A DNA stretch of 64,000 nt from Amphiscolops sp. MND2022. Its lineage: Eukaryota. A program made the position numbers and the translations under genes. The DNA lies in the NCBI GenBank assembly GCA_964187785.1, contig OZ076414.1, forward strand, positions 4,278,001-4,342,000, read 5' to 3'. Below are positions 28,001-58,700 of this stretch, piece by piece (the first letter of the stretch is position 1; each line of letters opens with the position of its first letter). The notes beneath the pieces were generated by a model. The model was not told the origin of the DNA. It saw only the letters and a list, made by a program, of their open reading frames with translations, and ran no database searches.

Positions 28001-28073
28001 TCTGTGAAGAAGAGCCTGGGGGCTACTAATCAACAGCACACTGTGCAATCTGCAAAAATGGATGCTATGGGGT
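22034..28073 (+). repeat. ~3-kb head-to-tail tandem duplication (22034-~25030; 25033-28073)
   Basis: Continuous near-identity at offset ~3000-3046, with paired ORFs such as 24030/27076 and 24424/27470. Confidence 0.97.
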
Positions 28074-29660: not shown

Positions 29661-30055
29661 AAGTGTGCGGAAGTCGGGGCGGGTGATGATCAACACATGA
29701 TCGTATGTTGATGCTCCACCCAGCGGAACCTTCAGCCTTCCTCCCAACCCTCACCATAACTTGTGGTGCCAACCAAGTGCAAACGTACTTGGAGCCAGCA
29801 ACCTTCGACCTCCAAGGACGTACGCTCATATCCATCCGCTTGATGTTGGCTGTAGAACAGCTGCGTCGTCCGACACTAACTTTGGCGAAACTTTGGCTGA
29901 ACTATCCATCTCATACAAGTGAATGGAACTCCCTCGCCCAGAAGAGTGGTATGCTCCCGGAGGTTCTAACACATTGACCCTGTATTCTCCAGAGCCCATC
30001 TGTGCCACGATGGACGGCGTGGACGTGAAGTTTGAAGCCGAAGCCTGCGTGGTAG

Positions 30056-32484
30056 TTGACGTGTTCCCTCCCTGTATATGCCTGGGACCTCAAGAGCTCA
30101 AAGGCTACAGCATCAGTCGCCAGTAACCCACCGACGAAGCACGAATCATGCCCCCATACAGCACCAATTCCATTGCGAGGTCTGGTTGATACCGGTTCCA
30201 GAGTGTTTTTTCTTACGTTCTCTGCCTTTATTCGAGTCGCTGTCCAAATTAGGGCAGTATTGAAATCCTACCAGATCGACTTGTACTCCGCCAATGGCAA
30301 GACCATCAAAACGTTTGGATTGGCGGAGCGTGTGCGCTTCCAGTTAGGAGGCTACGAGTTGGAAACTAATTTTGTTGTGGTGGACGACGCAATGGGAGTC
30401 CAGGACTTCTTGTTAAGCCGAAACTTCCTCCGGGCGTATCAGGTCCCCGTTGACTTGACATCGATGAAGATCGTGGTTCGTGCGCCAGTCCAACCAGTGT
30501 GGCATCACGTCCATACCCATGTAGGTGACTCCATTTTAGCAGTTCCCGTCGCTTTAGACTGCGACCTAGTGGTGCAACCCTTCAAACGCACGGCTGTGAA
30601 AGCCAAGGTGGTCACTGCCAACCTAGGACCACTAGTGTTTCAAAACGTAGTGCTGAACGCCGCCATTGCGGACGCGTCACTACAGAATGTCGTTTTGTTT
30701 TAGGAGGACTGCGTTGCCACTGTCAGTGAGACAGGCCATGTCTTTATCAGCGTGATGAACCTCACAAGCAACCCACAACGTATCCGTGGCAATACCCACC
30801 TGGGACCTGTGGTACTCGAATTCCTGATGTAGCGAAAAGTACCCCAACAAGTGGATAGTCCAAAACCAAAAAGTGAGGTCGATAAAGACCATGTTGATTC
30901 TGTTATTGAAGTTAATGAGAAAATTATTCTCAGTACCGACTCTCAATTAACTTCTTCGTCGGAATTTGAGTTTTTGTCGTCAACAGATCCTACTGAGGAA
31001 GGCTTTTCAGACCGTGAGAAACGGAAACGCACAGATTCCGAGCTAATGGCTCCCATACCGGGACCAGAGTCGCAGCTACAGGAGGTGAAGGAGCATTTGG
31101 AGTTCTGAAGCGAGCACCTCTTTAGAGAACCTCTTGACCGAGTTTGATTGCTTGTTCATGACACGAAAGGTTGAAATGGGCCGATGCACCAAAGCCAAGC
31201 ACCCAGTAGAGGTTGAATCAGGTGCGTGCCGCACCGTGAAGGTGCCAGGCGTATGTCTCCTGAAAATCAGCACGTGCTAACCCGGAGGTGCGCAACTTGT
31301 TTGCGCTTGGAATGATCCAACATTCACTGTCCCTCTATCGTGATGGTTAAGAAAAAGAACGGTGAATTACGGTTCTGCTGTGACTTCCAGACACTTAACG
31401 AGGTAACCGTCAAAGACTCATACCCGTTGCCCCGAATTGATGAAAGTCTGGTCAGGCTGTGTAAGGCCAAGATCCACACCAGTATTGACCTGGCCTGGGA
31501 TTTCTGGCAAATCCCTGTCCGAAAGGCTGTTTGCCAGAAAACCGCATTTGCCTGTGAACTAGGGCTTTTTGAATGAAGCCACATGCTCTTCGGCAGGTGT
31601 AACGCTTCTGCCACCTTCCAAAGAGCGATAGCTCGAGCGCTACGCAAAAGTGTGAATCGAGAAGGTAGTATGGTGACGGCAATTACATCGACGACATTGT
31701 GATAGCCAAGGAAACCGTGGAAGACCACATGCTGGTCTGCGCGAAGTTTTTGAATGCCTGCGCGAAGCTGGGTTCAAAATGAGAGTTGCCAAGTGTGATT
31801 TCATGAAGTCTGAAATGAAATTCTTGGGCCACGTGGTGTCAGAGGAGGGTGTAAATCCTGACCCTAAAGCCGTTGCGAAACTACGAGGTTGGAAAATTCC
31901 CCGGGACAAAATGGAAATGCAAAGCTTTCTGGTCTTTGCCAACTATTATCGCTCATCCCTTGGCATGCCAAACTTGTTACTCCTTTGCACACCATCACTG
32001 GTGGGAATGCCACTTTCACGTGGGGGTCTGAATAACAGCTGGCCTTCAACGAAATCAAGAATGCGCTCATCGAGGCGACTGCTCTCGCGCAGCCAGACTC
32101 GGAAGGTGAATTTGTTCTGGACACTGACGCCAGTGCCGTGGGGATTTCTGGTATCCTACACCAATGGTAAGGTCCCCAGGAGACAGACGTCTACAACCCC
32201 TTGTCTACGGCAGCAAGAAGTTGACCGCTACCCACGCAAAGTAAGGGGCTCCCAAATTGGAAATGTACACCGCCTACCACTTCATTGTCAAGAACCACAG
32301 TTATTTGTGCCCGCGATGGATAATGGCACTCGAGAAGTACCACTTCCTTGTGGAACACCGACCACGGACACAACATCGCAATGCCGAAGGTTTGTCCAAA
32401 CGGACCAATGACTATCGGTGGCGAGAACAACCGCTAGAAAAACTACCATCTGTAGCTGATCGCTGGACGTTCTTGTATCGCTAG
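30056..32484 (+). pseudogene. pol: pol of Gypsy A (protease-RT-RNase H), disrupted
   Basis: GLVDTGS; VMVKKKNGELRFCCDF..YPLPRID; SIDLAWDFWQIP; YIDD (31684-31695); FVLDTDAS; HRNAEGLS. Confidence 0.9.
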
Positions 32485-33262
32485 ACGAATATGAGCGATA
32501 GCCCACTGCACCATGGTAAAGCATTTCGACAGGTGGACTACCGGTTACCGATGCCATCTCAGTGGTCAACGGGTGGGACTTGGGTGGACCATTGATTACC
32601 ACCGGTAGACTGTGATACATTACCAACCGGGGGGAACACTTTTACCACCATTTTAATGCCAGTCAACTCAAGTCACGCTTTCAACTCCAAACCAGCGTCA
32701 TATTCAGCCTGTTATTAGAGAAGCAATGTGAGTACAGAAGCTGAAATTGCTGAAATATTGTGCAAACAACAGAAGAATGAGATTTGCGGTTGTTGTAAGT
32801 CAGGGAGACTAGAGATTAAAAACTACCCTGACAATTTTCCGAGTTGCATTCTGACTGAAAATCTAACGAAGAGTACGAAGCGTCGCAAACACTCTAATCC
32901 AAAAAAGGCTCGAAGAAACACACCTTCAGTTGGCTTTTCCTACCCAGTTGTAAAAATGTCAAAAAAAATCATCAAATTGTCATTCTACAACAATATTTCT
33001 ATGTATTGGTGTGGTGTTATCAGAAAAAAACTACATTAATAATCAAATTCCTAACGAAAATGGCCTTCGCTTCTATTTTGGATAGTTTCCTTAGGTACAT
33101 GCTTCCAAGAGAAACAGTTTTTCGTAGAATTTTGCGAAAAGTAAAGTGGGAAGATTCTCACCGGTCTGCTTGTCAACTTCCCCAAACGCCGCTGACGTCA
33201 GCACCTGAGAAAAACAGCCAGTGTTCAATCCATATATGTCATAAGCATCGTCCGTGGGTTCG

Positions 33263-33622
33263 TCATTGGGACGCTTTTGGACTCGCTAACTTTTGAATTG
33301 TTTCTAGATTTCTCGTTTCGCAGAACTTAGTATTCATTTTCGGTCTCTCAGCCGGAACGTTCCATCCGCTTTGTATTGAGTGTCCCGATCCGGCCATTAA
33401 GGCATTTTGGATCTGGGGCAATAGTTGAATAATAATGGAATCATTAATAGCCCTTCGAATCTGAACACTAACACTATTCATCATCTCGTCCATCTCTCTG
33501 GATATCATAGAACTCAACTCTTTTGACAATCTGTTAATCTCAGCACTGGAGTTGGTACTTGTAGAATTCTGTCCAAGGCCGGCGTGATCGCCTGACTCAG
33601 TTTCTCTAGGATTCAAGTGCAA
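33263..33622 (-). mobile_element. Isolated gag-like N-terminal fragment of another retroelement
   Basis: Helical ORF EINRLSKELSSMISREMDEMMNSVSVQIRRAIND. Gag-like by recognition only; no catalytic motif. Confidence 0.4.
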
Positions 33623-36039: not shown

Positions 36040-37071
36040 TGTCGGAACGTGTATCAGTTTCATTTGATGTGGTGATGTTAGGTACGTTCCCTTCTCTATT
36101 GCTAGAGGATGGCTTTTCATTAGACGATATTTTCTCGGTCAGAGCAAGAACTAAGTTTGTCAGTTCACTTATTTGTCTAGTCATTTCAGTAAATCTCTGA
36201 TTTACTGCTCGACGTTCTGACTCGCCACTGTAATCCAACAAATTCCCGTTGTCAAACTCACTCATCTGTTCTCTCGTGAGAACTTCTGGGACACTGCTCT
36301 CACTTTCGGTATCGCTATGCCGATCTGTTCGGCACATGAAGGTATGCTGGTTGTCTGTTACTTGGGATCTCGTATTAACCATTTTGAAGAGATATTGGAT
36401 TTTTGAGGTTGTATTGATTGATTATGAGAAAGGTTAAGTATTTTGGTAACAAATCGTGTTTAACTGAGAGGTACGTATTTAGCAACTGTATCGTAATCTA
36501 TCGCAAAATCTTCTGATGTTACTATTTCACCTGGTAATAATTATGGCGACGTTGGTCACGTGACCACATCAACCAATCATATTTCTATTTTTCGTTCGCA
36601 CCTTTGTTAGTAATTGCGCAATATGGTCGCAGCACCAAAATGAATGTAGTTACGTTGCTATGGTTACATGACTCAAATTTGGTATAATGATGTGGTTGCA
36701 CTACTAGCATCATATATGTAAATGGTTAATGTATATAATTGTTTACATGACTAACTGCACCAGAACGAAATCTGATGATGGTGTATCAGCCACATTACTT
36801 TCACTTTTAACTAAAAGTTCACGAGATTGATTTAAATAACATGCATGACAAATGTATGAAATATGGGAGATAATAGTAAAGTTATTTGGGGAATGAATAG
36901 AAATGATGCTTTTTAGCAGATTCGAGTTCGAGTTTTATGATGTGGTTGACTTCACCACATTCTTCCCTTTCATCATCATTCTTTTACTGTTTTGACATTT
37001 TGTTTCTAGTTCAGGTATGCAGGATGGTTGACCACATCATTGTTTGTTATTTTCATGCGTCAGGCATGACA
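36040..37071 (-). repeat. 3' LTR of element B
   Basis: TGTCATGCC...GTTCCGACA; about four differences from the 5' LTR seen by eye. Confidence 0.97.
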
Positions 37072-37090
37072 CTCCGGGTCTTTTTTTTTG
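37072..37090 (-). other. Polypurine tract of element B
   Basis: Minus strand AAAAAAAAAGACCCGGAG directly before the 3' LTR TG. Confidence 0.7.
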
Positions 37091-37207
37091 AAAAAGAACA
37101 TGTGGCTGAAATGGCGAAATGTCTCGTTCAGTTGGTTGGTAGATTGGACGCGGCATGCTAATGAGCAAGGTTGAAAATGCTGTATTCGTTAATTAGATTG
37201 AGCGCTC

Positions 37208-37365
37208 ATGTTGTTATGGTGACCACATTAGTAGTTGCGAGTTGACTTTGTGGTTGGAAATGAGCAGTGATGTTGTTATAGCAACAACATTGGTAGTGGC
37301 GGGATGACATCACGGTCGGAAATAAGCAGCGATGTTGTTATAGTAACCACATTGGTAGTGGCGAA
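37208..37365. repeat. Three-copy imperfect array, period 62 bp, with palindromic cores
   Basis: ATGTTGTTAT(A/G)G..A.CACATT(A/G)GTAGT(T/G)GCG at 37208, 37270 and 37332. Confidence 0.85.
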
Positions 37366-38055
37366 TTGATTTCGTGATTGAAAATATTCGAGTAGATTGT
37401 CGCTTCGGCTCGATATGGCGAGTGAGCGAAGAAAATGTTGGTCACGCATTGGCTGTTCCACTTCGGTAAAGAGTAAATATAGAGTCGATGTGGCGAGGGT
37501 AGCCACGTCATCCAATCGTGCGCATCGTTTGCAGTAAGAGAGTTAAAATAAGAATGAATTTGCCGGAAATTAATCTAACGTGGCAGCGTCATATAATTAC
37601 TCGGCTCATCCGGTAATCGTTCGGAAGTGGTTGTAGTGGAACATCGTGCGCTCTGTAAACAATTCTTCGTCGATGCCAATTACGATAAGCAAACATTTCT
37701 CCAGTATATTCTTTTGTGCGATTCTTCGGCAATTCAGTTCGGCCGCGGCTTACTGAGTGATTGTATCAATGATCAAGTGGGCTATAATTAGGATAAGCCA
37801 GGGAGTCGTATTGTGATTTTGGAGGATTTTTCCGGTAGGCTTTGGCCCTTTTTGGGGTAGTGTGGTTGGTGAATTTCAGGAATTAGGTTATCCCTTTGGA
37901 TTTTTTGGGTAGTTACTTTGCATAGACAATGTGGGTGATCAGTCCACATGATCATTGGAAGTTACTTTGAACCTCAGTAAATCGCAAACGACTGTGTGCT
38001 TTCAGTTCAATTGCCTCAAGTTGATTACTTTTCAGACTTGCTTGTTATTACTGTC

Positions 38056-38311
38056 ATGAGTTCACCGGCGCAGGAAGGGCCGTCCCAGGCTGATGCAGAA
38101 GTAGCTGCAGTTGTGTTGGCAGCAGAAGGAGTGCTCACCGAGCTGGAGCAGTTCAGTTTCTCTTCGATAGGTAGTGAATTGCCTGCTGCTGTCGAGGAAA
38201 CCCTGTCGGGAGAGCGTTTTGGAACGTGTTGTCGCTTTGCGGGCAAGGTGACTGCTTCCAACAATGAGGCAGCTAACACGTTGTTGGAGATTGCGCTATC
38301 GAGTGAATTCC
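38056..38311 (+). CDS. hAT/ZBED-like cargo gene, exon 1
   Basis: ATG at 38056 (MSSPAQEG..), donor C|GTGAGT, phase 1; an upstream TTTTCAG acceptor suggests a 5' UTR intron. Confidence 0.7.
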
Positions 38312-38583
38312 GTGAGTAGTCTCATTATTTCTTTTCTTTTGCCCTCGCTGTGTGTAATTAGCGCTCAGGTAGTTTTGTAGGACAGTGACATCCGTAGTCG
38401 TGGGTCACAAGTAGTTTTTTCGAAATAATAACCGATAAAGGTTATCTTTCCTTCAGAGCATTCTGAATTATTGTAAGCCAGTATGTCGTTTGAGCGGTAC
38501 TAGCATTGAGGCATGTGTACTTCCCGGGATCCAATGCTCTGGGTAACTGAGGAGGTGGTTAATGAGACATTATTGTGCTTCAG

Positions 38584-38718
38584 AAGATTTATCGCTTGTA
38601 GACGTCGTAAAGTTACTCCGCTCACTGCTGGCTTCGAAACGAGGTGATGCCGCGGGTGGTTCACCCGAAATAACTGCTGTGGAAGATCGCTTCAGTTCCG
38701 TCCTTGCTGGTGAACTGG
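38584..38718 (+). CDS. hAT/ZBED-like cargo gene, exon 2
   Basis: GTGCTTCAG acceptor, G|GTAAGT donor, phase 1-1. Confidence 0.7.
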
Positions 38719-38844
38719 GTAAGTGGTCGGTTGTCATACATCATATCGAGTATACTGCTAGTCTTGGTTCGGTGTTTGGGTCGGCTGTGGTCCGTATGTC
38801 GTGTGACACACGTCATATAGCGGAAAAACTGATTTGTGTTGTAG

Positions 38845-39234
38845 GAACTTCTGCTGGCGTGCCCGTGACAAGGGCTGAAATGGAGTCTTCGCTGGCACGA
38901 ATGACGAAAGAATTGTCAGAGACAATCAAAGCAGTAATAGATGCGAAGTTCGGAGAGTTGGGTCCTGTTGGTGTGTTGGCAATCGAAGACTGTGTGCAGA
39001 AGTTGAAGGCGGCTACGGGCCAACTTGCGGGGGTTGCAATGACTTCTGGGAGCGGGGCGGATCAGGTCGTACCAGCTGTGCCTCCCGTTCAGTTGGAAGA
39101 GTCGATCAGTCCTGTGGCCGTTAGTAGTGCAGCGTCCTTCACTCCAAGTCAGTTGTCCGATGTGCCAACTGCGTTCGGAGGAGTGCGGTCGTTGGTGTCG
39201 ACGGGTGGAGGAGCTGCTACCTCATCAAAACCTG
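38845..39234 (+). CDS. hAT/ZBED-like cargo gene, exon 3
   Basis: GTGTTGTAG acceptor, G|GTAAAG donor, phase 1-1; helical then low-complexity sequence. Confidence 0.65.
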
Positions 39235-39411
39235 GTAAAGAATCTCAAAAGATCATGGGAGGGGTTTTAGTAACAGTTCCCAAACTCAAGGTATATAGGA
39301 GACTACACACGTTTTTTTTTGTTTTTTTTTTGAATTTAACGGGGGGTTAGGAGTCGTTGCTAGCACTATTTTGGGTTGCTGGTTTGCGTGTGAGTGTGTC
39401 GATTATTTCAG

Positions 39412-39974
39412 CGCGAGTGAGGAAAGTGAAGACGTTGAAGCCTTCATACTTTGTCTCAGGCGTGGTCGGGACTTTCGTGGGCTTCCCCCGACACAAACGA
39501 GTGGTGGATGGCTACGCTAGATGTCTCCTCTGTAAAGTAGATCTCAGCATTGCTGGGCGTGGCTTGTCTTCGTTGTGGGAACATTGGCGAGGCGTAGGAC
39601 ATACGCGCCTTGAGCAAAAGTATCGCATAATGATGCAAATGCCACTACTTGATAAAGCTTGCCGCCCAGTAACCGCAGAGGAGGATAGACGAATTCGCCA
39701 AGAAAGGATGACAGAGCCTCCAGTGTATCTGGAGTCCGAGTTGAGTTTGTCCGTGGATGAGAGGGTCGCGATTGAAGAGGCCGAAGCGTCTGCTGGTGAA
39801 AGACCAACATTGCCTACAGAGAGTGCGGCTTACCTGTGGTTAGGCCAATTCATAAGCAGCATTTGCAATGTTGCTTCGTTCGGTTCTGTGATGAGGATGG
39901 TGGAGTCATGGCGAGATGGTATGAGTGCTGAGCTACGTGTCGAGTGTCGCTCCTTGACTTATGCCCGATGTCAG
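39412..39974 (+). CDS. hAT/ZBED-like cargo gene, exon 4 (BED-like zinc finger)
   Basis: ATTTCAG acceptor, CAG|GTACGT donor. ARCLLCKVDLSIAGRGLSSLWEHWRGVGH (C-x2-C..H-x5-H). Confidence 0.8.
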
Positions 39975-40144
39975 GTACGTGTATACATTTGCTGTTTTTG
40001 GGCTTTAGTACTGAATGCGTGTTTGCGGGCTTTGGTTGTGAAAAGGGGGGGTTTCTCAACGCGTTGATATGGGTACAGTTGTTTTTGTGTGAATCTATGA
40101 GGTGAAGGTGAGCTCCTCATTTGTGTGATTGGCTGTGTTTACAG

Positions 40145-40633
40145 AGTTTGGTGTTGTACGCACTGTACCGGTTCGTCGTCGAACAGTTGGACTGTCTGCT
40201 ATCCCGTGGTAAGAATGTTGGTTTGAGCTTGAGAAGACAGAACTCTGATTGGATCTGTGAGTGTCATGTGGTCGGAGACTGTGCGATCAAGACTGTGGTT
40301 TTTGGCGTAGTGGCCGCCGGAGCTGGGTGGGAGACGAGTATGATTGCCAATGTAGTACCAGTGTTACTCAGTTTGCAACATGCCTCAAATATCAAGATGT
40401 ATAGCACTGAGTCTGAGACCCGAATTGGACATGCTCTAGCAGCAGCAATTGGAATCACTGATCCCTTGGTTGTCGGTCGAGTGACCCAAATATGGTTGTT
40501 GGATCTCGTGAGGAAGCAATTCCTAGCGGAATTTGGCGGTCTCGACCCACTCAGCGTGTTGGACTACTTGCGTGTTCGTTTAGCCGCTGTAGTGCAGGAG
40601 GGCTTCATGGATCGATTGCCGAAACTTAGACGA
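40145..40633 (+). CDS. hAT/ZBED-like cargo gene, exon 5 (RNase-H-like core, degenerate)
   Basis: GTTTACAG acceptor, CGA|GTAAGT donor, phase 0-0. Confidence 0.8.
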
Positions 40634-40798
40634 GTAAGTACTTGGCATTATCGTTTATGATGTGGGTATGTATAGGACATTGGTTCGTTAATATATACAC
40701 GGATATATTTTATTGTTTTTGGTAAATTGAAACGTTAGGTGCGTAGCCTATGACAGTAAGTAGATTATGTCAAACTTTCAGCTGTGTTTTTTTTGCAG

Positions 40799-41009
40799 TT
40801 CATTCGCTTTGGAGGGAGTGATGTGGTTGTGTTGGCCTCATTGTGTACTGAAGTCGTTGAGCACTGGAATGATCTAGCTGTGTACTTTGGCACTCACAGG
40901 CCTAGCGTGACTTCTGAGCTGCGTCTGGTTACTCCGCTTGAGGTGCAAGTTTTCGACGATGCAATGATGCGCCCCCGGTTTGCTGTGTTACGACTCATTC
41001 TGGATTTGC
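40799..41009 (+). CDS. hAT/ZBED-like cargo gene, exon 6
   Basis: T-rich GCAG acceptor, C|GTTAGT donor. IRF..LCTEVVEHWNDLAVYF resembles hAT TRW.S..RILEQW..L..YF. Confidence 0.8.
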
Positions 41010-41202
41010 GTTAGTTGTCACACGTTTCGATTTTTTTTGTTTTTTTTGTTGATTTTTTTTGTTTGGGTTTTGAATTTGGTGTGATGTAGTAAGTGGCTAG
41101 ACATAGGCGCGTTTTTCAATATGACTCTTTTGGTGAAGTAATCCTAAGTCGGAAAAAAGAGGGTATGAACGCTGATTCATGTGTTTTGTTTTGTGTTTGC
41201 AG

Positions 41203-42539
41203 TAGTCGAGACTTGTCCGCGTTTGTGCAGAAGTGGCAGAGACAGTAACATGTTAGCAGAGCGCGAGCTGTCACAATTCGTCCGAAAACTTATGTGTTTC
41301 GTGTATCCGCCTTCAGTGATCCCTGCGGAATTTGAAGTGAGAGCCCTGCTGGCACCGGTAGACTGCGAGTACGCGACAGTGGACGAGGGCCTTTACAAGC
41401 TGCACTTCGGGCAATATTTCCGATACGACGTACGAACCCAGTTGCCGTTCTTTTATAGATCGGTTCAGAAATTGTTGGGCGTTGTTTGTCGGGAAGTAAC
41501 AGGAGCATGGGAGCAAGGTGCTATTAGTCACTTTAGTATGACCCCGTTTGATCCAGAATTGATTCACAGAGGATCTGACGATCGGTGTATCGATGCTCTG
41601 GTTGGCACGTGTGCTACTCTGTCGAGATATCAACTCCTTGATGATGACGATGTTACTGCTGTACTACGACAATATCGGGAAGTGACACAATTCTTCAAGA
41701 AGAAGTGGACGTTGACAGAAAATGCACCGGTAGTTGACGACGTGGTAACTATGTGGTTCTCTTATCCCTACTGGTCACGATGTCAAGAGTTGTTGACCGT
41801 GGTCAACATTCTGTTTGGGCTGAATGCAGTTGGGACTTATGAGCTAGATTTTGTCGATGATGTGGACGTTGCGATGCCGGTAGATACCCTACGTTCCAGT
41901 TTACATTTTGTTCGGAGTTGGCTTGCCAAGTCTTATGCGGGACATACGCGTCAAACTCTAACTGGATTGCTACGAGTGTGCGAGACGAGTGATATGCAGG
42001 TCACTCGATTATCCGATGAGGCTCGAAGTAGACCATGGGATCAGCTGATGAAATCTGGGTTAGGTGAAGCCTTGGCGCGTGGTAATGCTACTTTGTCCAA
42101 TGAACTGTCACTCCCAACCACGGTGCGGATAGATGATTACCGGTCGAACGTATTGGCGCAACTTGATCTTGTGGAAGTGCTGAGTCCTCCCCGTGCCGGA
42201 AGGCGTAGTAGCCCGGTTCTTAAGCGCGGTACCTCAGTTAAGAAAGTTGTTCGGCGACAAGAAGACGTTACGTTGCCAGCAAGTGGATCTACCCCTATTC
42301 GGTCGTTGCAGCGAAGCAGGACGTCAATTCGGAAAAGTGCGAGGAGCGCAGTTCGTGAAGGGCCGTCTACAAGTCGTCAGCCTAGCGGGCGCCGGACTGG
42401 TGGAAAACCTCGGGGCAAGAAGTTCTTGCAGTTAGCAACCGTTGGTGACTCCGATAATGACTCGGCTAATGAAGTGGTTGTGAGTGGAAAGAAACGGCAA
42501 AGCCGTTGTGCACTATACTCATCGGATGAGCAAGATTAG
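41203..42539 (+). CDS. hAT/ZBED-like cargo gene, exon 7 (dimerisation-like region and basic tail)
   Basis: TTTGCAG acceptor, phase 1. DDVVTMW..WSRCQELLTVVNILFGLNAVGTYELDF; R/K/S-rich tail; ATTAAA at 42604. Confidence 0.8.
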
Positions 42540-44138
42540 AAGAAACTGGATAGAGAACATTTCGTGATTGAGTCAATTATTTTGCATTTGTTTTTTTTTT
42601 ATTATTAAACGTTTGAAGTTGGGATATTTGTTCTTGGCATGTTGACGTGCCTTTTGCTGTTACTATTTGGTGTTTGTGTATTCCTCGCTCTAGATGCTTG
42701 ATGGTTTATATGTAGACTTTACATGCGTTGTTTACATACTTTTAGTAGTGCTGATTGATTTCTTGGCTCAGCTTTGATTTCACGCGTGAGCAGGTGGTTA
42801 ATTTACATGTTGCTTACGTTATACAAATTTTTTACATGGGGGCTTCGTTAGCTGGTTTCAATTTGTCAGGAAGCTGAGTAGAGTTGTTTTTTTGTTTCAG
42901 TGAGATTGTATGGTGGTTACTTGCGTAGCCACCAATTTAGACAGAGTTTCATTCACGGAGGTTTACCCACAGGTCTCGGAAAGTGGTATTGAGGCCCTGT
43001 GGTTACACCAAGGTGAATGAACGGAGCTGTACCGCTCCTTCCCAATGATCGAACTAGATGCTTTGCAGGCTATATATACTCTAAGTGCGTGTGTTTTAAC
43101 TGGTGTTTACACGCATAAGTGTCATTCTAAGGTGTCAATCATTTTTTTTGTTTTGCTTTATATGTGTTGTTATACTCGTAAAATTGAGCGTTAGTTCTGA
43201 CGTCGTCATCACTGATGTGTGTCATGAGACGTCATCACTCGTGACGTGTGTCAAATGGTAACGTCAATTTAATGGAAGATGGGTTTCCCCATGTCAATTA
43301 AACAGATTTTTTTTCTCTTTTACAAGGGGTGGTCTGATCCATCCCTTGTTTCGAATTTTCGGGTATGTAGTGATAGTGACTACATGTGCTTTAAGTACCT
43401 TGTTCTTTCTGACGCGAGGCGAGGCCTACGAATCACCAGTAATAACGAGGGTGTCACGACTTAATTGTCGGGTGAAGTTGGCGTGACGACTGCATGTTAC
43501 TGTCCTTAAGAAGTTTCGCTTTGCTTTCAGTTCATTTGGGAGGTTATTTGCCGTCGCAAAAACCCATTCAAAACTAACACCGAATCCACTTGCTAAAGAG
43601 CAAGCTTCATCTGAATGTTTGTGCAACCACACAGACGCGCTTTTGACGACGCACCCACACAGCCGAACCACATCATGGCTTTCTGGAGCGGAAGTGTGAG
43701 ACTAGGTTCTGTTGACGTAACTTAAACGAGTCGGCGTTTTCTTTTTTGTACTCAACTATGGACTGAGACGTGTTTGAAAACAGTTTAGTTTAGCTGATTC
43801 AGGATTGGTGGGTGCAGAATTACCGAGCAATTCCTTTGAAAGTGTGTGGTTGGGATTTTTCGTGAATTGCATAATTTATTAGGTCGTTTGTACGTGCTTT
43901 ACATGTACTTAACAATTTCCGGTTGGAGTGATGTGGTGTATGTGACTGCATTTCATGTATTTACTTTAGCGCTCAGCTTTCTCGGTAGAGAGTAACATTT
44001 TACTCTGCCGGTAAACTTGAGTATGTAGGACAGTGAGTGTCAGTCGTCACTGAATGGTGTAAAATAAATAGGATAATTCAATGGTATGATTGCTGCATGT
44101 GGTGATATAGACTACATTGTATTGATTGCATGTATTCT

Positions 44139-47100
44139 CTATTGGCTTTCAGATTTGCGTTGCATGAATTTTAAAAGGGCGGGCTTTGCTTGCAGTTCGT
44201 GAACGAGGAAGTTGTCGAACGTTTTAGGCACAGGTGCCTCACGAAGGCTGTATCGAGTAATGTTGTTGCGTGTTATCGGTGTAGGTGTTTCGGCAGATGA
44301 TGTGGTTGACTCCGCATCATTATGTGTCGGAATTTGTTTTTCAGACTCATGATTAGGCAGCGATGTAGGTGGTTCGTCAGATTGAATTTCAGTTCTATTT
44401 TGGTACGTATTTTCGGTGCGGATGGCTTCAGGAAGCGGGTTAGACAGAGGTGGGACTTCGTGAACCCGTTTGTGTTCATAATAAATTGTTCCGTGCTCGG
44501 AAGCGATTGCTTCAGTTTCGTTTGTGTCGAGTTCAAATGTGTTTTCAGCTGGCGGTGATCGTTCGATTGCAGGCAGATTATCGTTGAATATTGACTGATC
44601 GTCAATTGCGTCAGGATCACTGTAATGTCGGTTTACGTCATCAGTCACGTCTTCAATTTTGTCGTGAGGTACAAATGGGCGGAGCCGCATTCTATGTACG
44701 CACTGCGTCTTGAAGGTACCGACTTTTCGGATGATATAATTCGATTGTGTCAAGACCTTAACAACTTTGTAAGGTCCTTCCCATTTGAAAGAGTTGAAAG
44801 GGATTTTTTCTGATTGTGTGCTGATTTTAGGATTCAGTAAAAAAAACAAAGTCGTTTACTCTAATGGTGATGCTTGTGCCTTTCGGTCATAGTACGCTTT
44901 GTACTTGTGAAAGGCTCGGATGATATTGGTGTGAGTTTCTTTGAATTTGGTGTTCAGGTTGTCCACTAACGACTGTGTATCAGTGGCATTCCTCGGGGGA
45001 CTAAGAGGGTTGCCAAATTTTAAGTCTAGTGCGTTGTATGGCACGCGGCCGTGGAAGACTTCAGTCGGTGAACATTTCAGGGTTTGGTGGTAGGTCGTAT
45101 TGTGCGCCATCACAGAGAGGTTGACGTATCGGTCCCACTGAGGGCGGTCGGCAGAGACGTTTATTTTCAGAATCTGTTTCAAACGTTGATGCGACCTTTC
45201 GATCATCCCAATAGTTTGGGCATGTTTGATTGTCGCGTGGGAAACTTTTATCCCAGACTTTTCCATCAGTTCAGTTATTACTTGTGAGGTGAAGGCAGAA
45301 CCTTTGTCAGTGATGATGTGTTTTGGCACATATGCGTGTTTTGTGAAAATGTCTAGCAGAGCCTCGACGACAGATTTTGTGTCAGGTTTACGGATTGGGA
45401 TGGCAAACAGATATCGTGAAAAGTAGTCGCAGGCCGTCAGAATGTGTGAGTACCCATTAGATCGCGGTAACTCACCTACGAGATCAATTTCCAGGACGTC
45501 TTCAGGACCATTGCAAGGGTCGTATATCGGTTCAAGCGGTGGTTTCACGGTGTTAGGTTTCACAGGTTTAGCTTTAATACAGTCTTGGCAGTTGTTTACA
45601 AAGTTTTGGACCTTTTCAGCTAAGTTCGGGATGTAGTACCTTTTCCTTAGTTCAGCTAACATTTTGGAAGCGCCAGGGTGTCCCTGCATGGGGTCGCCAT
45701 GCATCGTCCTGATTATGGCTTCCGTAGTTTCTGGAGGAACTACAATTTGTCGGTAAGCTAAGTTTCCTACGTTGTCAAAAAACTGCCTGTACAACGCGTT
45801 GTTCACTACTTCAAGTCTTTTACGGTTCTTAAAGAGTTTTTGGAAAAAGGTACTTGTAAAGTTCACTTGGTTCGGAGGAGTTTCTTGGACAGTAAGGATC
45901 CTAATTACACGTTGAACGTCACTGTTTTCGCCTTGAGCCTTAACAATTTCTGAAGTCCCCGAAGGGCATACCTGATTTACCGCGTGAACCTGGTTCCGTT
46001 GGCAAAATCGGGTGAAGAACAGTGCTGGGTCAGAGGGCGTTACAAATGGTTGCACCTGGGTTTTGATGTCATCAATGCGTCTACGGTACTGTTCGTCGTC
46101 TTCGTGACACCATTGAGGGAACATCGCCAAGAGTGACTGCATCGTTGGATTTGGTGGTGTTGTAGCATCAGGCACATTCGTCGCGTCTGGAATGTAATCG
46201 TCTTCCTCATCGTCCTGTTTGGGTGTTTTTGATGCCAAGTCAATTTCGACCTTGAAGACTGGTATCTCGTCGTGTAGCTTGAGGTGGATCTTGTCCTTTG
46301 GGTGGATGTCGATTCTGGACAGGTAGTCAGCTGCTGGGTTCTCGACTCCAGGTACATGGGCCAGGACGAAGTCGAATTGGAGGGCTTGGTCGCAGTAGTT
46401 CCACAGTTTAGGAGGTATTCGTTTAGACTGGAAGAATCTTGTGAGGGCTTTGTTGTCAGTCATGACGATTGTCGGTTTCTTCACTCCCCACAAGATATGA
46501 GCGAACTCATCAAATGCGAAGTGCATAGCCAGGAACTCTTTTGCATACATCGTGAGCGACATCTGGCCCTCAGTAAACCTTTGTGAACCAAAGGCTACTG
46601 GTGCGTATGGCTTCGTCGGTCCGTCATTCGTCTCAGTGTAATCCTCGATCAAGAGAACGTATCCAGCTGCATGCTCGCTAGCATCGCACATGATCACTAG
46701 TTGTTTGTCCGGAAGTGGTAGTCGCAGGGACATCTTGGCTGCGTTTGCTAGGTTCTCATTGATGTCGAACATGGCATCTTTGTGGACTTGCGTTAGTTCG
46801 AATTTGGCGTCTTTCTGTAGGAGTTTGTAGAGTGGAACAAGTTTTTCTGCTAGGCATGGAATGTATTGGCGGTAGAATTGGACGAATCCAATGTATCGTT
46901 GTAAAGATTTCACAGACGTCGGTAATTTGATGTTTTTCAAAAACTTGTCAAATTTTTCTTCGATGGGGGCTACTCCCTTGGAGGTGATGCTACGTCCCAG
47001 GAATTCCATCTCAGGGTGTCCGAAAGCACATTTGGCCATCGACAGTTTCAGGCCAGCTTGTTTGAGTTTCATGAACACAGCCTCAATGTTGTCGACTAGC

Positions 47101-48788
47101 TTTTCGACATTGTTGGCTGCAATGCCGATGTCATCGACGTATTGGGCACATTTGTCGGCCTTGACCAAGGGGTCCAAGTACTCTCGAACAGTACTGTTGA
47201 AGGCTGATAGTGATCGATTCAATCCTTGGGCTAGTCTGAGGTAGGCGAACGTCCTACTTCCGAAGTTGAAAGCGAGTAACTGGACTGACTGTTCATCTGC
47301 CATTTGCAAACAATGGTATGCTTGTGAACAGTCCAGTTTGCAGAAATATCGCTTTCCTGCCATGTGTTGTGCTGCGTCTGCCATCGTCGTCACCGGATGG
47401 TTGTGCTGATTGTAGTCATTCTTCAGCAAGTGATTGATCCGTCTGAGGTCTACGAGGATTCTAAGCTTCCCATTTGGTTTGCGTTGGGCGAAGATGGGTG
47501 AAGAGTACTTGCTGTACGGCAATGTTGTGATTATGCCGTACTCCTGCATCAACGCCAATTCAACCAGTAAGTCGTCTTTCAGGTTCGTCGGTGTGGGTAA
47601 GCTTTGAGCATAGACTGGTTCGTCGTGTTTGGGAGTCAACTTTATCTTGAATTCGGTGTTGATCCCTATGTCCAGTCTATGTCTGGCGAATATATCATGG
47701 TACTTGACCAATAGGGCCTCGATTTTCTGTTTCTCGTGAAGGCTCAGTATTGATTGTTCCCACTGGAAATTTGCCAGAAATTCATGGCGTTGTTCGTCAC
47801 TTGCTGTTGGATCTAGATTCTCCTCGGCCCTGAGTTTGACGATTTCGTCATAGATTCGTTTTTCAATCTTGTTGAGTTTTGACGTGTCGTCACAAGTCTC
47901 AGGGGTAGGGTACCATCTTCTATCTGATGTGGTAGTCGGATCCTGGAAGATTTGGTTCAAGACAGCTTCGGCATCATCTGGGTACTGGGAAATCAGGTTT
48001 AGTTGGTGGTTGGTCATCGGTTGGAGGTTGTTGGCTTGCTTCGGTGTCATTATTTTGAATGAAGCCACTGGTGTACCCACATTGATGGTAATTTGGTAGT
48101 CGAGTGGGTTTGTGATCTGGACATGAGTCCGCCCCTCCTGGGTCTGGTTGAGAGCTGGAGAAACCAACAGATGTGAGCGTCTTTCAAAGGCTGGTAGTCC
48201 TTCGACAGTGCCAGTGATGTCGCCTAGGTCGCGTTCAATCACCACCGGGACGAACACTTGTTGATTGGGTTGGATCACAGTCTTCTGAGTTGTCTTCAAT
48301 TCGAGTAGTTTGTTTTTGAATTTCCCGTTGACTGATCGTAATTGGAGGGTGATGTCCGGGAATTTGACGATGTTGTTGGCTAAATCCAGGGTAACGGAGT
48401 ATTTTTTGAAGAATGACATTCCAATGAGTATATTCCCCATCGTTGGGAGGACCATGAATGTCTCTTCGAAGATTTTTCTCCCGATGAAGAATCGTAGTAG
48501 GACTTGTTTCCTCACTGGAACGATGTTTCCATTGGCGATATGCACTTTGAACTCCGGAGCAGGGAGTTCCTGGAGGAGGGCGGCTGGGTGTGCTGTGAGG
48601 ATGCGGCGGAGTTCCGCTTCTGAGAGAGCACTTTGGATTGCTCCCGTGTCAAGTAGTCCGAAGTTTTCATATTCGCGGAATTGAAGTGGTACGTATAACA
48701 TCTTGTCCTTTTTGTTGAGTTGCAGGGTGGCACTCAACTGGCGTATTTCGTACTTCGGTTTCTTCTGTTGGTTTCCTGGTTTTGACAT
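44139..48788 (-). CDS. pol: pol of element B (protease, RT, RNase H, integrase, GPY/F), one in-frame TAA at 44856-44858
   Basis: LLDTGA, QYVDDIG, VIMCDASE, H..GHPG..CQDC, IDLVGELP, TDKGSAF..IERSH, KWEGPYKV. Confidence 0.98.
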
Positions 48789-49069
48789 AGTGGTTCGTTT
48801 CTCATCATTCGGTTGGTCAGGCAGTGTGCGATATGAAATCGGGTGTTGGATGTTGTGGGCTTCAGGTCTTCGTTTGGTCTCCTTCGGTTTAATGGTGTAG
48901 TTGTCAGTTAAGTGTCTCGTGATGACGAAGTTAGTAGTTTCCTTAGTGTAAGTAGGAGGACGGGACTGCCACCCCGTGTGGTTTGCAGTATGTAGTCGGG
49001 TCAGAGGAGTAGTTTGTTGGTGTTGGTTTAGTAGCGCACTTTCGTATGTTTGAGGAGGATGACGTGGCT

Positions 49070-50605
49070 TTAGAAGTTTTTTGGATCTTCTACGTCATCG
49101 TGTCGTTCTGTTTCCTCAGCATCTTCGATATCGTCGTTGGCAGTGTGGGACATTTCATTGGCGTTGTAGACCCTACTGTTGGTCTGTTTGAAGTCCCTTC
49201 TAAATTGTCGGTTTTCCTCGGTCGATTGCTTAGGGTACGGGACGCTTCGGTAGGCGGACGTCCCCGTGTTCCTGTAGTAGCAATCTCGGGCGGAGTGTCC
49301 CACTTTGCTACAAGTTTGGCACACAAGTTTGGGGTTATATCTGGGCTTGATCTCTTGAGTTTGGGCGGGTTGGGTTGGTTGTTGCTGGTTTTGGCCATGG
49401 GGTTTGGTTTGTGCTTCCTCCCGGAGGCGTTTCCTGCACTCAACCCACTTGTGGCCATGTATTCCGCAGTGGCCACATTGGCCATCAAATTTTCGTTTTG
49501 CCTCCCTGGGTTGTTGGGTTTGGACGTTTGATGTCTGAGGTGTGGCTACATTCGGCAGGGGTGCGCTTATCTGATTGAATGGTTGCGCACTGGTTGTATT
49601 AGGAATGAGCTGCGCATACTGACATCTGCGCTGCACAAATGTCCTGATCTCCTCCATCGATGCATCATGTTTGCCTGCCATGGCCAAATCGTTTTGCATT
49701 TGAACGAGGAGTTTCGCAAATAGAAACGTCTCTGTAATATCGCTGGACTTGTCCCCAAATGCCTGCTTTGCGACTTTTTTGAACTTGTTGAGGAAGTCAT
49801 TGAAGGTCTCTGCTGAAGGGTCGTAGCGCATCTGGTCGAATTTGTATTTGGCCACTTCCTTCAAAACTTCTTTTGCGTATTCCTTCTTGAAGTAACGCAG
49901 TACTTGGGCCAGTGTTGTCTGGTTCGTTATTTTCAGCGATTGCCAAAATTCAATGGCATCGTCGCGTAACAGGCTCTGGAAGTATGTCAGTTTCTGTTCT
50001 TCTGACAATTTGTGTTGGTGTGGCCTGAGGTGGTTGAGCAGCAGGTGCTCAAACTCGTTGTACTTTTCTCGGTTTCCGCGGAATAGTGGGACTTGTGTGT
50101 GCAAAATTTTTGGATGTTGCACCGTGTCCGTCATCGTGTCCCTCAGGTGGTGAATTTCAGTGACAATGTCGTCGAACTGCTGAGCGGATGACTGAGGGTA
50201 TTGTGAGGTGGATTGGCGTGGTGGGTTCGGTAGTTGGCTGGTTGTTGGAACTCCTGTCACCATGTCGGAACGTGTATCAGTTTCATTTGATGTGGTGATG
50301 TTAGGTACGTTCCCTTCTCTATTGCTAGAGGATGGCTTTTCATTAGACGATATTTTCTCGGTCAGAGCAAGAACTAAGTTTGTCAGTTCACTTATTTGTC
50401 TAGTCATTTCAGTAAATCTCTGATTTACAGCTCGACGTTCTGACTCGCCACTGTAATCCAACAAATTCCCGTTGTCAAACTCACTCATCTGTTCTCTCGT
50501 GAGAACTTCTGGGACACTGCTCTCACTTTCGGTATCGCTATGCCGATCTGTTCGGCACATGAAGGTATGCTGGTTGTCTGTTACTTGGGATCTCGTATTA
50601 ACCAT
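49070..50605 (-). CDS. gag: gag of element B (511 aa, two CCHC knuckles)
   Basis: CGHCGIHGHKWVEC and CQTCSKVGHSARDC; uninterrupted ORF. Confidence 0.95.
   Translation of the reverse strand: MVNTRSQVTDNQHTFMCRTDRHSDTESESSVPEVLTREQMSEFDNGNLLDYSGESERRAVNQRFTEMTRQISELTNLVLALTEKISSNEKPSSSNREGNVPNITTSNETDTRSDMVTGVPTTSQLPNPPRQSTSQYPQSSAQQFDDIVTEIHHLRDTMTDTVQHPKILHTQVPLFRGNREKYNEFEHLLLNHLRPHQHKLSEEQKLTYFQSLLRDDAIEFWQSLKITNQTTLAQVLRYFKKEYAKEVLKEVAKYKFDQMRYDPSAETFNDFLNKFKKVAKQAFGDKSSDITETFLFAKLLVQMQNDLAMAGKHDASMEEIRTFVQRRCQYAQLIPNTTSAQPFNQISAPLPNVATPQTSNVQTQQPREAKRKFDGQCGHCGIHGHKWVECRKRLREEAQTKPHGQNQQQPTQPAQTQEIKPRYNPKLVCQTCSKVGHSARDCYYRNTGTSAYRSVPYPKQSTEENRQFRRDFKQTNSRVYNANEMSHTANDDIEDAEETERHDDVEDPKNF
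49076..49082 (-). other. -1 ribosomal frameshift slippery site A AAA AAC
   Basis: X XXY YYZ heptamer in the gag frame, two codons before the stop. The -1 frame is open into pol (both codon starts are 2 mod 3). Confidence 0.8.
50245..50262 (-). other. Primer-binding site TGGTGACAGGAGT..
   Basis: TGG immediately after the LTR-terminal CA. Similar, from memory, to tRNA-Leu-type PBS TGGTGTCAGGAGT; the primer identity is uncertain. Confidence 0.75.
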
Positions 50606-51295
50606 TTTGAAGAGATATTGGATTTTTGAGGTTGTATTGATTGATTATGAGAAAGGTTAAGTATTTTGGTAACAAATCGTGTTTAACTGAGAGGTACGTA
50701 TTTAGCAACTGTATCGTAATCTATCGCAAAATCTTCTGATGTTACTATTTCACCTGGTAATAATTATGGCGACGTTGGTCACGTGACCACATCAACCAAT
50801 CATATTTCTATTTTTCGTTCGCACCTTTGTTAGTAATTGCGCAATATGGTCGCAGCACCAAAATGAATGTAGTTACGTTGCTATGGTCACATGACTCAAA
50901 TTTGGTATAATGATGTGGTTGCACTACTAGCATCATATATGTAAATGGTTAATGTATATAATTGTTTACATGACTAACTGCACCAGAACGAAATCTGATG
51001 ATGGTGTATCAGCCACATTACTTTCACTTTTAACTAAAAGTTCACGAGATTGATTTAAATAACATGCATGACAAATGTATGAAATATGGGAGATAATAGT
51101 AAAGTTATTTGGGGGAATGAATAGAAATGATGCTTTTTAGCAGATTCGAGTTCGAGTTTTATGATGTGGTTGACTTCACCACATTCTTCCCTTTCATCAT
51201 CATTCTTTTACTGTTTTGACATTTTGTTTCTAGTTCAGGTATGCAGGATGGTTGACCACATCATTGTTTGATATTTTCATGCGTCAGGCATGACA
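50263..51295 (-). repeat. 5' LTR of element B
   Basis: Direct repeat of 36040-37071 (offset 14223-14224). Confidence 0.97.
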
Positions 51296-54720: not shown

Positions 54721-55419
54721 CTTTCGCATGAAAATATGCAGGATAAAATGCAACATACAATGTGTAAGTTATGGATTTAGTATACAAGTTCTCACATAAG
54801 TAGATATAGTATACGTGCCCGCTAAGGCCCATCCATCTCTGGACCTAATGCACACACGGAATCCCACTTCGTCTAAGAAATTTATATTTCTATCCGATTG
54901 TGTCAGTACAAGGTCCTGGAAATATTCTGAGTATTCTTCTCGTTCATTTTGGATGGCCTCAATCTGGCCCTTTCAGTAACCACTTTCAAAATTTTAAAAG
55001 TATGGTGAAAATTCTTGAGGCATCTGTTAGTTGTAGCAATAGACAAAGTACCGCCGAAATGTTCAACAGTTTCTAGGGGCATAAATTGCAGCGAAATGTC
55101 ATATTTTTGTCAAAAAGGCCCGAATGTATTTGCGAGTTTCGTCTGTCACGTTTTCGTGCTGGTTTCCTCCTCTTTGCTTTTGATGAACCCGGTTTTCCTC
55201 CAGGTAGACATGTTTTATTGTGTCCACTGATGAAAGTGGCCTTGCAAATGCTTGGGCATTTCTCTGTGACCTTTTCTGGCATTGTTATTCTGAACTACGA
55301 GTTGTCTTTGTTCACTGGAATACATTTCTCGAGGAGCCACGCTTTATAACGAAGAAAGTGCGAGTTATCTCCTGGCTACGTAAATGAAGTGAACAAATAC
55401 CTATTGAACTGAACAAGTA

Positions 55420-58400: not shown

Positions 58401-58700
58401 AAGATGAAAACGCAGAACAACACCAGAACTTCACAACACTGGAACAAGAACTTGAGGCAGAACTCAACGCAATGCCGAACTTCCTTGAAATGACCAAAGA
58501 GGAAATCATTGATTGGATCAACAACTAACTGATAAAATCACTCAAACAAAGTGATTGGTAAAACATTCCCATGTCATTTATCAAACATTTATCAGCTACA
58601 TTAAATAGTACAAACCCAACTTCAGTTGTACAATTTGAGTTAAATCATTACGTTAACCCCTACAAAAACAGTACGTAAACTCCAACACGTAGTGGGGGGG
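55420..58700 (+). mobile_element. Decayed Ty3/Gypsy pol remnant C (RT-RNase H-integrase)
   Basis: STLDMTYAYDQV, FIDDIL, IRDASTAGLGAVL, ELELLAIVWAVE, HWGHPG..CTQC, IDFAGPF, RTDAAT. Ends in a G7 tract at 58694-58700. Confidence 0.9.

Follow-up and report, generated by a model that had tools for sequence, protein, structure and literature searches.

The Ty3/gypsy LTR retrotransposon on the minus strand at 36040-51295 of the window (the whole 64,000-nucleotide stretch of DNA analysed here) harbours an antisense gene in the region separating its 3' LTR from pol; this gene has seven exons and six GT-AG introns and is under purifying selection. The reading favoured here, to which we assign a probability of roughly 60%, is that this spliced antisense gene is expressed from a promoter in its leader, and that its product is a hAT transposase, no longer catalytic, which the element has retained as a helper acting in the nucleus.

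The host element

The element has the features that define a Ty3/gypsy retrotransposon: two LTRs, a target duplication, a primer-binding site, a PPT, and gag followed by a pol with the domain order protease, RT, RNase H, integrase, gag and pol both lying on the minus strand. LTR comparison places the 3' LTR (TG...CA) at 36040-37071, supported by the 5-bp target duplication that flanks both ends of the element, and the 5' LTR at 50263-51295 (both minus strand); the pair differs by 3 substitutions and 1 indel, and the element is young. A PPT-like purine-rich tract adjoins the 3' LTR at 37072-37090 on the minus strand (a similar tract occurs in 13 listed elements), and element comparison locates the primer-binding site at 50245-50262, again on the minus strand. 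Domain matches define gag at 49070-50605, with its start inside the 5' LTR, and pol at 44139-49094; the pol of the window copy is interrupted in the integrase tail by an in-frame stop (44856-44858), and a search of pol against a phage collection gave no match. The window also contains a piece of a BEL/Pao element, a group that is to our knowledge restricted to animals.

Structure and conservation of the antisense gene

The LTR edge is 984 nt away from the ATG of exon 1 (38056-38311). Removal of the six introns (126-272 nt; phases 1,1,1,0,0,1) joins this exon on the plus strand to exons 2 (38584-38718), 3 (38845-39234), 4 (39412-39974), 5 (40145-40633), 6 (40799-41009) and 7 (41203-42539) in one frame of 1126 codons with a single terminal stop, 1600 nt from the end of pol. 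These positions bear out two statements of the sequence-only reading, namely that all six introns lie opposite to the genomic RNA and that the gene starts about 1 kb from the 3' LTR end. Exon 4 encodes a zinc-finger-like motif (C298-C301-H318-H324, at 39522-39602); exon 5 encodes a predicted RNase H-like core, seen in the structure model of a relative's frame; and exon 7 encodes a helical part resembling, in the predicted model, Hermes over its C-terminal half, followed by a basic, serine-rich tail (23% K+R and 17% S in the last 118 residues of the protein). Donor-like words number 59 on the plus strand vs 15 on the minus strand, and acceptor-like words 18 vs 0. Retaining an intron would add a stop or a frameshift in 34 of the 36 introns of six elements.

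Exon sizes and splice sites repeat across diverged families. In the 12 elements compared, exon 4 measures 563 nt in all 11 that were scored, and exons 5 and 6 measure 489 and 211 nt in 12 of 12. Among 16 pairs compared, the three between-family pairs with a defined (unsaturated) dS give dN/dS values of 0.06, 0.07 and 0.08, and 12 saturated pairs have pN of 0.09-0.38 vs pS of 0.75-0.87. When elements were picked by their pol, 18 of 20 carried the gene on the opposite strand (13 of 13 where the stretch included the 3' LTR); this is the placement of the aORF-3R class (antisense extra ORFs between pol and the 3' LTR), and conservation like that of a coding gene, which also characterizes the class, is found here too. 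Genes of the class are further marked by transcription from an antisense promoter of their own, the candidate counterpart here being the conserved motifs of the leader. Gene trees are discordant.

The longest open frames at gene matches are only 499, 507 and 477 aa among the 95, 100 and 150 scored, so that no scored match is intron-less, and precise intron loss was seen in none of 50 loci and none of 14 measured elements. Short exon spacings at four loci (L002, L051, L070 and L289) were considered as intron losses and rejected; they are deletions. As a separate observation, copies of the gene by itself, accompanied by a partial copy in inverted orientation (L113-L116, L121-L130), sit inside a large composite repeat, and a family related to them (K_C10) has gag and pol.

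A probable convergent, spliced transcription unit

The central proposal of the sequence-only reading, that the element runs two convergent transcripts, is upheld on the evidence of sequence: a frame readable only from spliced plus-strand RNA, selection on that frame and introns retained in every copy examined make a second, convergent transcription unit very likely. The fixed exons and splice sites, the low dN/dS and the absence of any intron-less copy argue strongly for a spliced antisense mRNA. It is highly probable that such a plus-strand mRNA exists and that its introns are preserved because they run backwards in the genomic RNA, which would carry them unspliced to reverse transcription; their persistence in every examined copy is what one would predict for introns that lie antisense to that RNA.

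Since the genomic RNA must traverse the whole antisense gene, complementarity would be complete, and dsRNA or mutual regulation of the two transcripts is possible. It has been proposed for plant antisense ORFs (in the accessible text of PMC7264820) that such a unit acts as RNA, and the antisense unit here might likewise act mainly by pairing with the genomic RNA to yield dsRNA and small RNAs. This account is very improbable: RNA-level regulation cannot account for codon-level selection, and a dN/dS near 0.07 combined with fixed exon sizes and phases and with protein homology across clades calls for a translated product. To judge by these signatures the product is a protein, more than a regulatory RNA, and dsRNA may be a side effect of the antisense unit.

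Leader and transcript ends

The 984-nt leader from the LTR to the ATG (37072-38055, plus strand) is the candidate internal promoter and 5' UTR. The longest leader word common to all compared families is the 13-mer AGCCACGTCATCC at 37501-37513, whose core we take to be CRE/ATF-like; it is present in 11 of 11 compared leaders, its first 10 nt recur in 15 of 19 elements, and it occurs in 11 of 20 pol-selected stretches and is missing from all seven stretches of another set; some families lack it. A small palindrome or hairpin about 120 nt upstream of the ATG (37930-37950) is found in 15 of 19 elements and in only 6 of 20 pol-selected stretches; two pairs of its 5-pair stem are altered on both sides in one group (4 of 10). 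The antisense promoter had been proposed to lie in or next to the 3' LTR. The second position agrees with the shared 13-mer, whereas the LTRs of 11 elements have only end motifs in common; a promoter is predicted, as likely, within the leader next to the 3' LTR. TGTGGT repeats were rejected as a promoter signal, being limited to some families, and a sigma-70 promoter scan, which is not applicable to a eukaryote, stayed at chance level.

The suggestion of a non-coding first exon, based on an acceptor at 38036, is not supported: the site is at that position in only 3 of 11 leaders (families A and B), the remaining aligned leaders have an AG elsewhere or none close to the ATG, and no common donor word was found upstream of the acceptor in the compared leaders. 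The ATTAAA noted at 42604-42609 (plus strand) is present, but as a functional poly(A) signal it fares poorly, occurring in only 3 of 19 elements (the three family-A copies); 16 of the 19 have neither AATAAA nor ATTAAA within 400 nt of the stop. A second ATTAAA at 43297-43302 (plus strand) is better shared (6 of 13 elements) and is an alternative poly(A) candidate. AATAAA is not depleted on the genomic strand (41 observed vs 36 expected in eight elements).

Likeness of the protein to hAT transposases

The hAT hypothesis was recorded before structure prediction. With the exon-7 model (pLDDT 79), Hermes ranked first of 48,161 chains (rmsd 8.2 over 172 residues) at a Z of 5.3 that is tied with unrelated rows and falls below the tool's caution line; the model is collinear with Hermes 368-608, and it gave no match in Foldseek. 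With the exon 4-5 model (mean pLDDT 48), Hermes took ranks 1-3 in Foldseek at weak E values of 1.5e-3 to 2.8e-3 and was absent from the VIA top 50. Overall, Hermes, whose group has an RNase H-like core interrupted by a helical insertion domain, came first in two of four structure searches, every score being weak. As to the BED-type zinc finger that hAT transposases have at the N-terminus, the C-C-H-H motif aligns with the finger of a host hAT family and is kept in 12 of 13 covering rows and in a distant clade; the match to zf-BED is weak, occurring in 5 of 27 rows with a best E of 0.025. The catalytic D-D-E triad is not conserved: its first D aligns to R478, in exon 5, the predicted fourth strand has no invariant acidic residue across families, and the third triad position is unalignable. 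The protein is probably a hAT transposase that has lost its catalytic activity.

Sequence searches with the antisense protein returned no Pfam family above the cut-off and no match to solved structures or to Ac-type host hATs. DUF4371 (Pfam) had no match in the genome, and neither did the control. No longer (fused or full-length) relatives were found for the exon 7 or the exon 4-5 alignment; the six longer relatives of exon 4 are all unnamed read-through frames.

The host hAT family has terminal repeats of 14 bp, duplications of 8 bp in each of four cases and a core consisting of one open frame of 578-616 aa without the introns of the antisense gene. It was located by a hypothesis-built pattern (209 vs 193 in the control, not enriched) and chosen by eye. 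Its alignment to the antisense protein, at the zinc finger and first strand, has a weak E of 0.029 and a score of 27.6 vs at most 19.6 in 12 shuffles; E is 0.0044 with both clades pooled and 0.16 with the distant clade alone, and exon 7 alone gave no match to this family. The distant gypsy clade itself (pol 42% identical) carries a homologue with common intron positions (profile match probability 96%, E 1e-9, 627 columns), and pol lies on the opposite strand from it in 16 of 16 fetched copies.

The weak scores of the fold and profile comparisons would also suit a chance likeness to hATs in a gene of other origin, or a recent hAT or host-gene insertion that is carried passively. We give this account next to no credence: the location of the gene is constant among elements with pol identities of 42-92%, it is under selection, no long inverted-repeat pair flanks it (window scan, minimum 60 nt), and hAT is indicated by three kinds of test. 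Under the favoured reading, an ancestor of the element would, quite probably, have taken up a hAT transposase gene in reverse orientation within its 3' region, after which the zinc finger and the fold stayed and the D-D-E triad decayed.

Spacer and role of the protein

Between the gene and pol lies a conserved non-coding spacer (43095-44138, minus strand), defined by cross-family alignment, with conserved blocks at 43199-43252 and 43526-43668. Its nucleotide identity is 77-82% in families B and C, and the blocks reach 83-87% in families D-G; for some family pairs the 1.1-kb spacer is more conserved in DNA than the gene (91-93% where the gene is 66-69% identical or unalignable). Stems are predicted in it on the genomic strand, and an Rfam search of the spacer gave no match. 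The idea that the spacer encodes a second protein was rejected, because similarity is equal in all frames and stops are many. No boundary common to the families emerges in the alignments of leader and spacer.

The conservation of the spacer and its predicted stems are in keeping with a protein of the same gene and origin that acts after transcription, binding the spacer of the genomic RNA for export or packaging in the manner of Rev or CERV, or joining the integration complex to guide insertion. The basic tail of the protein also fits, as does the requirement for CERV, the spliced accessory protein of Cer1, in genomic RNA export (described in the accessible text of PMC10309623). However, changes in the spacer divide the sequences 6 vs 4 with one event per site, and gene and spacer have been exchanged independently, which argues against a tight lock-and-key pair. 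In addition, hAT zinc fingers are known DNA binders. A post-transcriptional role is rated unlikely, though deserving of some weight.

More improbable is a role as brake or defence, in which the protein would repress its own element, or block host hATs as a dominant-negative subunit, and be kept for limiting host damage. The genome does hold hAT families with near-identical copies, and the spliced antisense product HBZ of HTLV-1 lowers sense transcription (according to the accessible portion of PMC3185765); however, similarity to host hATs is near noise, which makes mixed complexes unlikely, and the gene-carrying families have expanded recently (18 copies are 99-100% identical in exon 5).

Within the favoured reading of a dead transposase kept as a nuclear helper, the protein may, by a tentative analogy with VANC, bind the element's own DNA via its zinc finger and aid transcription or block silencing. 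If so, a transposase would have been put to a retrotransposon's own service by domestication, and an animal would offer a setting in which to test what antisense accessory genes do. A fuller scenario, rather doubtful as a whole, is that an ancestral animal gypsy element captured the hAT gene backwards before or across the split from the clade with 42% identical pol, that the antisense orientation allowed true spliceosomal introns to be both kept and remodelled, and that the disarmed protein became a sequence-specific DNA-binding factor sustaining the element's activity and moved between families as a cassette bounded by conserved blocks. One class of mobile element would then have domesticated the enzyme of another as an anti-silencing or targeting gene.

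Comparison with known systems

In Ty3/gypsy elements of plants and fungi, extra ORFs in antisense orientation are described from the interval separating pol and the 3' LTR, namely Grande gene23 (maize), RIRE2 (rice), Retand TRP28, bean ORF2 and Boty brtn (Botrytis). According to the accessible text of these sources Grande gene23 is preceded by a promoter of its own and yields a product located in the nucleus, and the Retand ORFs contain a Transposase_28 domain (PMC7264820, PMC11963269, PMC4093653, PMC8365987). The gene studied here resembles them in position, orientation, presence in most copies and conservation. It differs in its six conserved introns and its 1126 residues (the word "intron" is absent from the accessible portions of the Retand and bean papers), in its host, which is probably an animal, and from Retand TRP28 in that the antisense protein has no match to Transposase_28 (PF04195). 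The plant and fungal ORFs are without similarity to other transposons or viruses, as the review puts it in its accessible part (PMC7264820).

The gene may be likened to HTLV-1 HBZ, whose spliced, polyadenylated antisense mRNA converges on the genomic RNA and codes for a regulator; however, HBZ, as described in the accessible text, is a 206-aa bZIP protein that starts inside the 3' LTR (PMC3185765), whereas here the first coding exon has its ATG 984 nt beyond the LTR, and it is the leader that contains the conserved motifs. Like CERV of C. elegans Cer1, the gene would be an accessory gene that is spliced and resides in a gypsy element of an animal, but CERV is an RNA-export factor made from spliced Cer1 mRNA, for which the available part of the source describes no transposase origin or antisense unit (PMC10309623). 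VANC of Arabidopsis VANDAL elements is an element-encoded factor that acts on the element's own non-coding DNA; it serves as an analogy for the proposed job, with no homology claimed, VANDALs being plant DNA transposons, unlike the LTR element here (PMC5735166).

With hAT transposases (Hermes, PDB 8edg and 4d1q; host family L210, L213) the predicted protein would share an arrangement in which a zinc finger is followed by a helical region, an RNase H-like core and a C-terminal half that is helical; unlike them, it has no conserved D-D-E triad, resides inside an LTR element and has an extra 260 N-terminal residues. In its accessible text, a 2020 review gives the origin of most antisense extra genes of LTR elements as unknown and urges a search for antisense spliced transcripts (PMC7264820). 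Such genes are already known; the present case would add one with a traceable origin, a DNA-transposon enzyme, together with a six-intron structure, which on the sense strand would be lost in copying through RNA, and with many copies in two distant clades that allow comparison.

A young element with an intron-bearing antisense gene

The Ty3/gypsy retrotransposon at 36040–51295 is a young insertion; its LTRs (36040–37071 and 50263–51295) are identical but for three substitutions and one indel, and a 5-bp duplication flanks the pair. On the minus strand between them are the primer-binding site, gag and pol, the last encoding protease, RT, RNase H and integrase in the Ty3/gypsy order. The pol frame of this copy is interrupted by a stop in the integrase tail (44856–44858); read at the same point, eight of the nine other elements checked stay open for 212–265 codons and one for 87. 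The start of gag lies inside the 5′ LTR (50263–50605), so that every LTR holds more than 100 gag codons. Other decayed retroelements occupy 11580–13144, 22000–33600 and 55400–61100 (a BEL/Pao fragment, a gypsy-type element that contains a 3-kb tandem duplication, and a piece carrying integrase).

Seven plus-strand exons between pol and the 3′ LTR (38056–42539), delimited by alignment with relatives, join into 3381 nt (1126 codons, one stop) and are separated by six introns, all GT-AG. A genome search with exon 7 gave 1019 candidates, of which 95 were scored, falling into identity groups near 98%, 68% and 48%; with a distant database relative as query, more groups appeared near 40%. Exons were mapped in 18 elements and counted in 12, six truncated, broken or near-duplicate ones being dropped; leaving out seven of the 84 exons as broken or not located, 77 were kept. 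AG is found at 66/66 acceptors and GT at 65/65 donors, a count that is partly circular because the boundary search itself looked, within 45 nt, for AG and GT in phase. Less circular is the constancy of exon size: 563 nt for exon 4 (11/11), 489 nt for exon 5 (12/12) and 211 nt for exon 6 (12/12), where the end in four elements, for which mapping had proposed another donor, was reset to the window's length, with GT there in all four. Introns range from 109 to 272 nt, and retention would bring a stop or frameshift for 34 of 36.

Among 20 elements chosen by pol, 18 carry the gene on the strand opposite pol, and the two without it also lack an LTR in their stretch; no intron-less copy was seen among copies searched with the gene's exons or pol. 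Introns 1 and 3 hold short conserved words away from splice sites (38520–38545 and 39235–39270). In one copy (L041, C_C3, 4765–8401) internal duplications repeat exon 6 and some of the spacer. The gene is also present, without gag-pol, in a composite repeat that exceeds 30 kb and is ~98% alike on three chromosomes (stretches L113–L116, L121–L124 and L128–L130); this repeat further holds an inverted, internally deleted gene copy and a 77-nt tandem array, and could be a source of hairpin RNA; family K_C10, related to the composite repeat of L113–L116 and L121–L130, has gag and pol.

Selection and a probable spliced transcript

Exons 4–7 were compared in 16 pairs. Three between-family pairs have a defined dS and give dN/dS of 0.06, 0.07 and 0.08; one close pair, which has few changes, gives 0.28 (RT of that pair, 0.32); the remaining 12 are saturated (pN 0.09–0.38, pS 0.75–0.87). 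For exons 1–3 six pairs fall at 0.14–0.27 and the close pair, where changes are very few, at 2.46. Because a protein kept by selection has no other possible source, we infer that spliced plus-strand RNA supplies it. The antisense gene is a real feature, and the claim of the sequence-only reading that the preserved introns imply a separate antisense transcription unit is well supported, by inference, from the open spliced frame, selection and the introns kept in copies.

A homologous gene in a distant clade

Beside a compared element lies a second gypsy element (contig G000:C13, stretches L230–L231), which shares 42% identity in pol and 27% in gag with that of the window; it and its copies lie at G000:C13:17805583–17821000 (L230, L231, L134) and in L262–L277. 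It too has an antisense gene between pol and 3′ LTR, whose pieces fit the window-gene profile in order. A search with its last exon gave 7844 candidates (not to be equated with copies), of which 100 were scored, and in 16/16 copies compared pol is on the opposite strand. Profile-profile alignment of the two clades' genes covers 627 columns (probability 96%, E 1e-9). In the shared region the distant gene has four introns: two match introns 5 and 6 in aligned place and phase, one lies at most one codon from intron 4 in equal phase, and one is extra; its N-terminal part is a single long intron-free frame. This mixture of shared and differing positions argues that the intron-bearing gene is old and that introns were gained or lost while it rode antisense. 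Database relatives whose identity to any compared locus is 24–29% may represent further lineages; when the last exon of the distant clade was used as query, a sequence look-up found no match.

Likeness to hAT transposases

A Pfam scan of the antisense protein gave no family above its cut-off; a hAT-like pattern had been spotted by eye before structure prediction. Among 48,161 chains Hermes ranked first for the exon-7 model (pLDDT 79), with Z 5.3 over 172 residues at rmsd 8.2 (1–243 on 368–608); unrelated entries equalled that Z, and Foldseek gave no matches. The exon 4–5 model, built from a relative's natural open frame (exon 4, intron 4, exon 5), is poor overall (pLDDT 48), its better core comprising three strands, a helix and a strand; Foldseek ranked Hermes 1–3 (E 1.5e-3 to 2.8e-3), and VIA returned RNase H-like folds other than Hermes, along with helical pairs, Hermes itself not being among the matches listed.

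Host Ac-type hATs match Hermes at E 1e-26, and profile comparison of the antisense protein with them gave no match. Another host family was hand-picked from the hits of a degenerate pattern modelled on a hAT motif (209 hits vs 193 in the control). It has 14-bp terminal repeats and 8-bp duplications in 4/4 copies and matches Ac-type hATs at a profile probability of 93%; Pfam matched a hAT or transposase family in 0/8 of its frames. The family has near-identical copies (stretches L210–L213, L226 and L227). The antisense protein aligns with this family at the four zinc ligands and the first catalytic strand (E 0.029), and lower scores came from the reversed profile and from 12 shuffles; exon 7 by itself gave no match. 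Pooling both clades improves E to 0.0044 (reversed control 0.23), and when the pooled profile was run on 1249 frames, taken from stretches selected because they contain that family, the top five were its own. We put descent from a hAT at about three chances in four. The family's first catalytic D aligns with R478, and catalysis has likely been lost.

Probable exchange between families, and the spacer

Trees of the antisense protein and RT were compared by their support values in 10 elements, two without both sequences being left out. The antisense protein joins C_C3 to C_C1a (100/100), but RT places C_C3 with A, B and C_C12 (100/100). In element pairs with RT dS of 0.10 or 0.32 the antisense gene is saturated in dS, and similarity is higher in the spacer and in a 226-nt leader block than around them. 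Module exchange between families is the simplest reading.

The non-coding spacer (43095–44138) is 77–93% conserved between families. Its block 43526–43668 has a predicted fold on the genomic strand, with changes that preserve pairs, and may be an export or packaging signal; an Rfam scan of the spacer gave no family. A cluster of TGACGT-like words (43195–43270), conserved in 10/10 spacers, is a possible enhancer.

Candidate promoter and ends of the antisense unit

The promoter had been placed in or next to the 3′ LTR. When 8-mers common to at least 10 of 11 elements were compared separately in LTR and leader (37072–38055), the LTRs shared end motifs only, whereas the adjoining leader held a 13-mer (37501–37513, 11 elements) and TTCGGAAG(T), which sits elsewhere in the leader of families D–H; the second half of that proposal fits. 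Both words look like sites of the CRE/ATF and ETS types, as in TATA-less promoters. Some 120 nt 5′ of the ATG the leader has a small hairpin. Neither motif is universal: the 13-mer is in 11/20 and the hairpin in 6/20 pol-chosen stretches, and the 13-mer is in 0/7 stretches of a further set. An internal promoter in the leader is our best guess. Three 62-nt tandem units in the leader (37199–37384) are seen in family A, the extra unit being absent from other aligned families. The proposed acceptor at 38036 exists as an acceptor-like site but in just 3/11 leaders, and a non-coding first exon may precede the ATG.

The ATTAAA at 42604, pointed out in the sequence-only reading, is present only in three family-A copies of 19 elements, which does not support it as the poly(A) signal. 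A second candidate, ATTAAA at 43297, is common to 6/13 elements, five others have AATAAA ~1550 nt past the stop, and two have neither; no shared canonical signal was found on the genomic strand of the LTR among elements compared.

Proposed working and comparison with known systems

Genomic RNA from the 5′ LTR would cross gag, pol, spacer, reversed gene and leader up to the 3′ LTR; because it would carry the introns reversed, and hence unspliced, each new copy would retain them. The spliced mRNA would start from another promoter, probably within the leader, and run the opposite way; dsRNA could form where the two transcripts overlap. The protein likely enters the nucleus, where it would bind element DNA and favour expression. 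As rivals, it might act on genomic RNA or on integration, or serve as a brake on the element; favouring expression is the reading adopted here.

A literature search of partial coverage, judged by title and abstract opening, listed no paper on an LTR element whose antisense gene has several introns and descends from a hAT; intron-bearing antisense genes may appear in the original brtn paper or the 2011 survey of extra ORFs. An internal promoter has been described for gene23 of Grande (PMC7264820), and the predicted leader promoter of the antisense gene would be like it.
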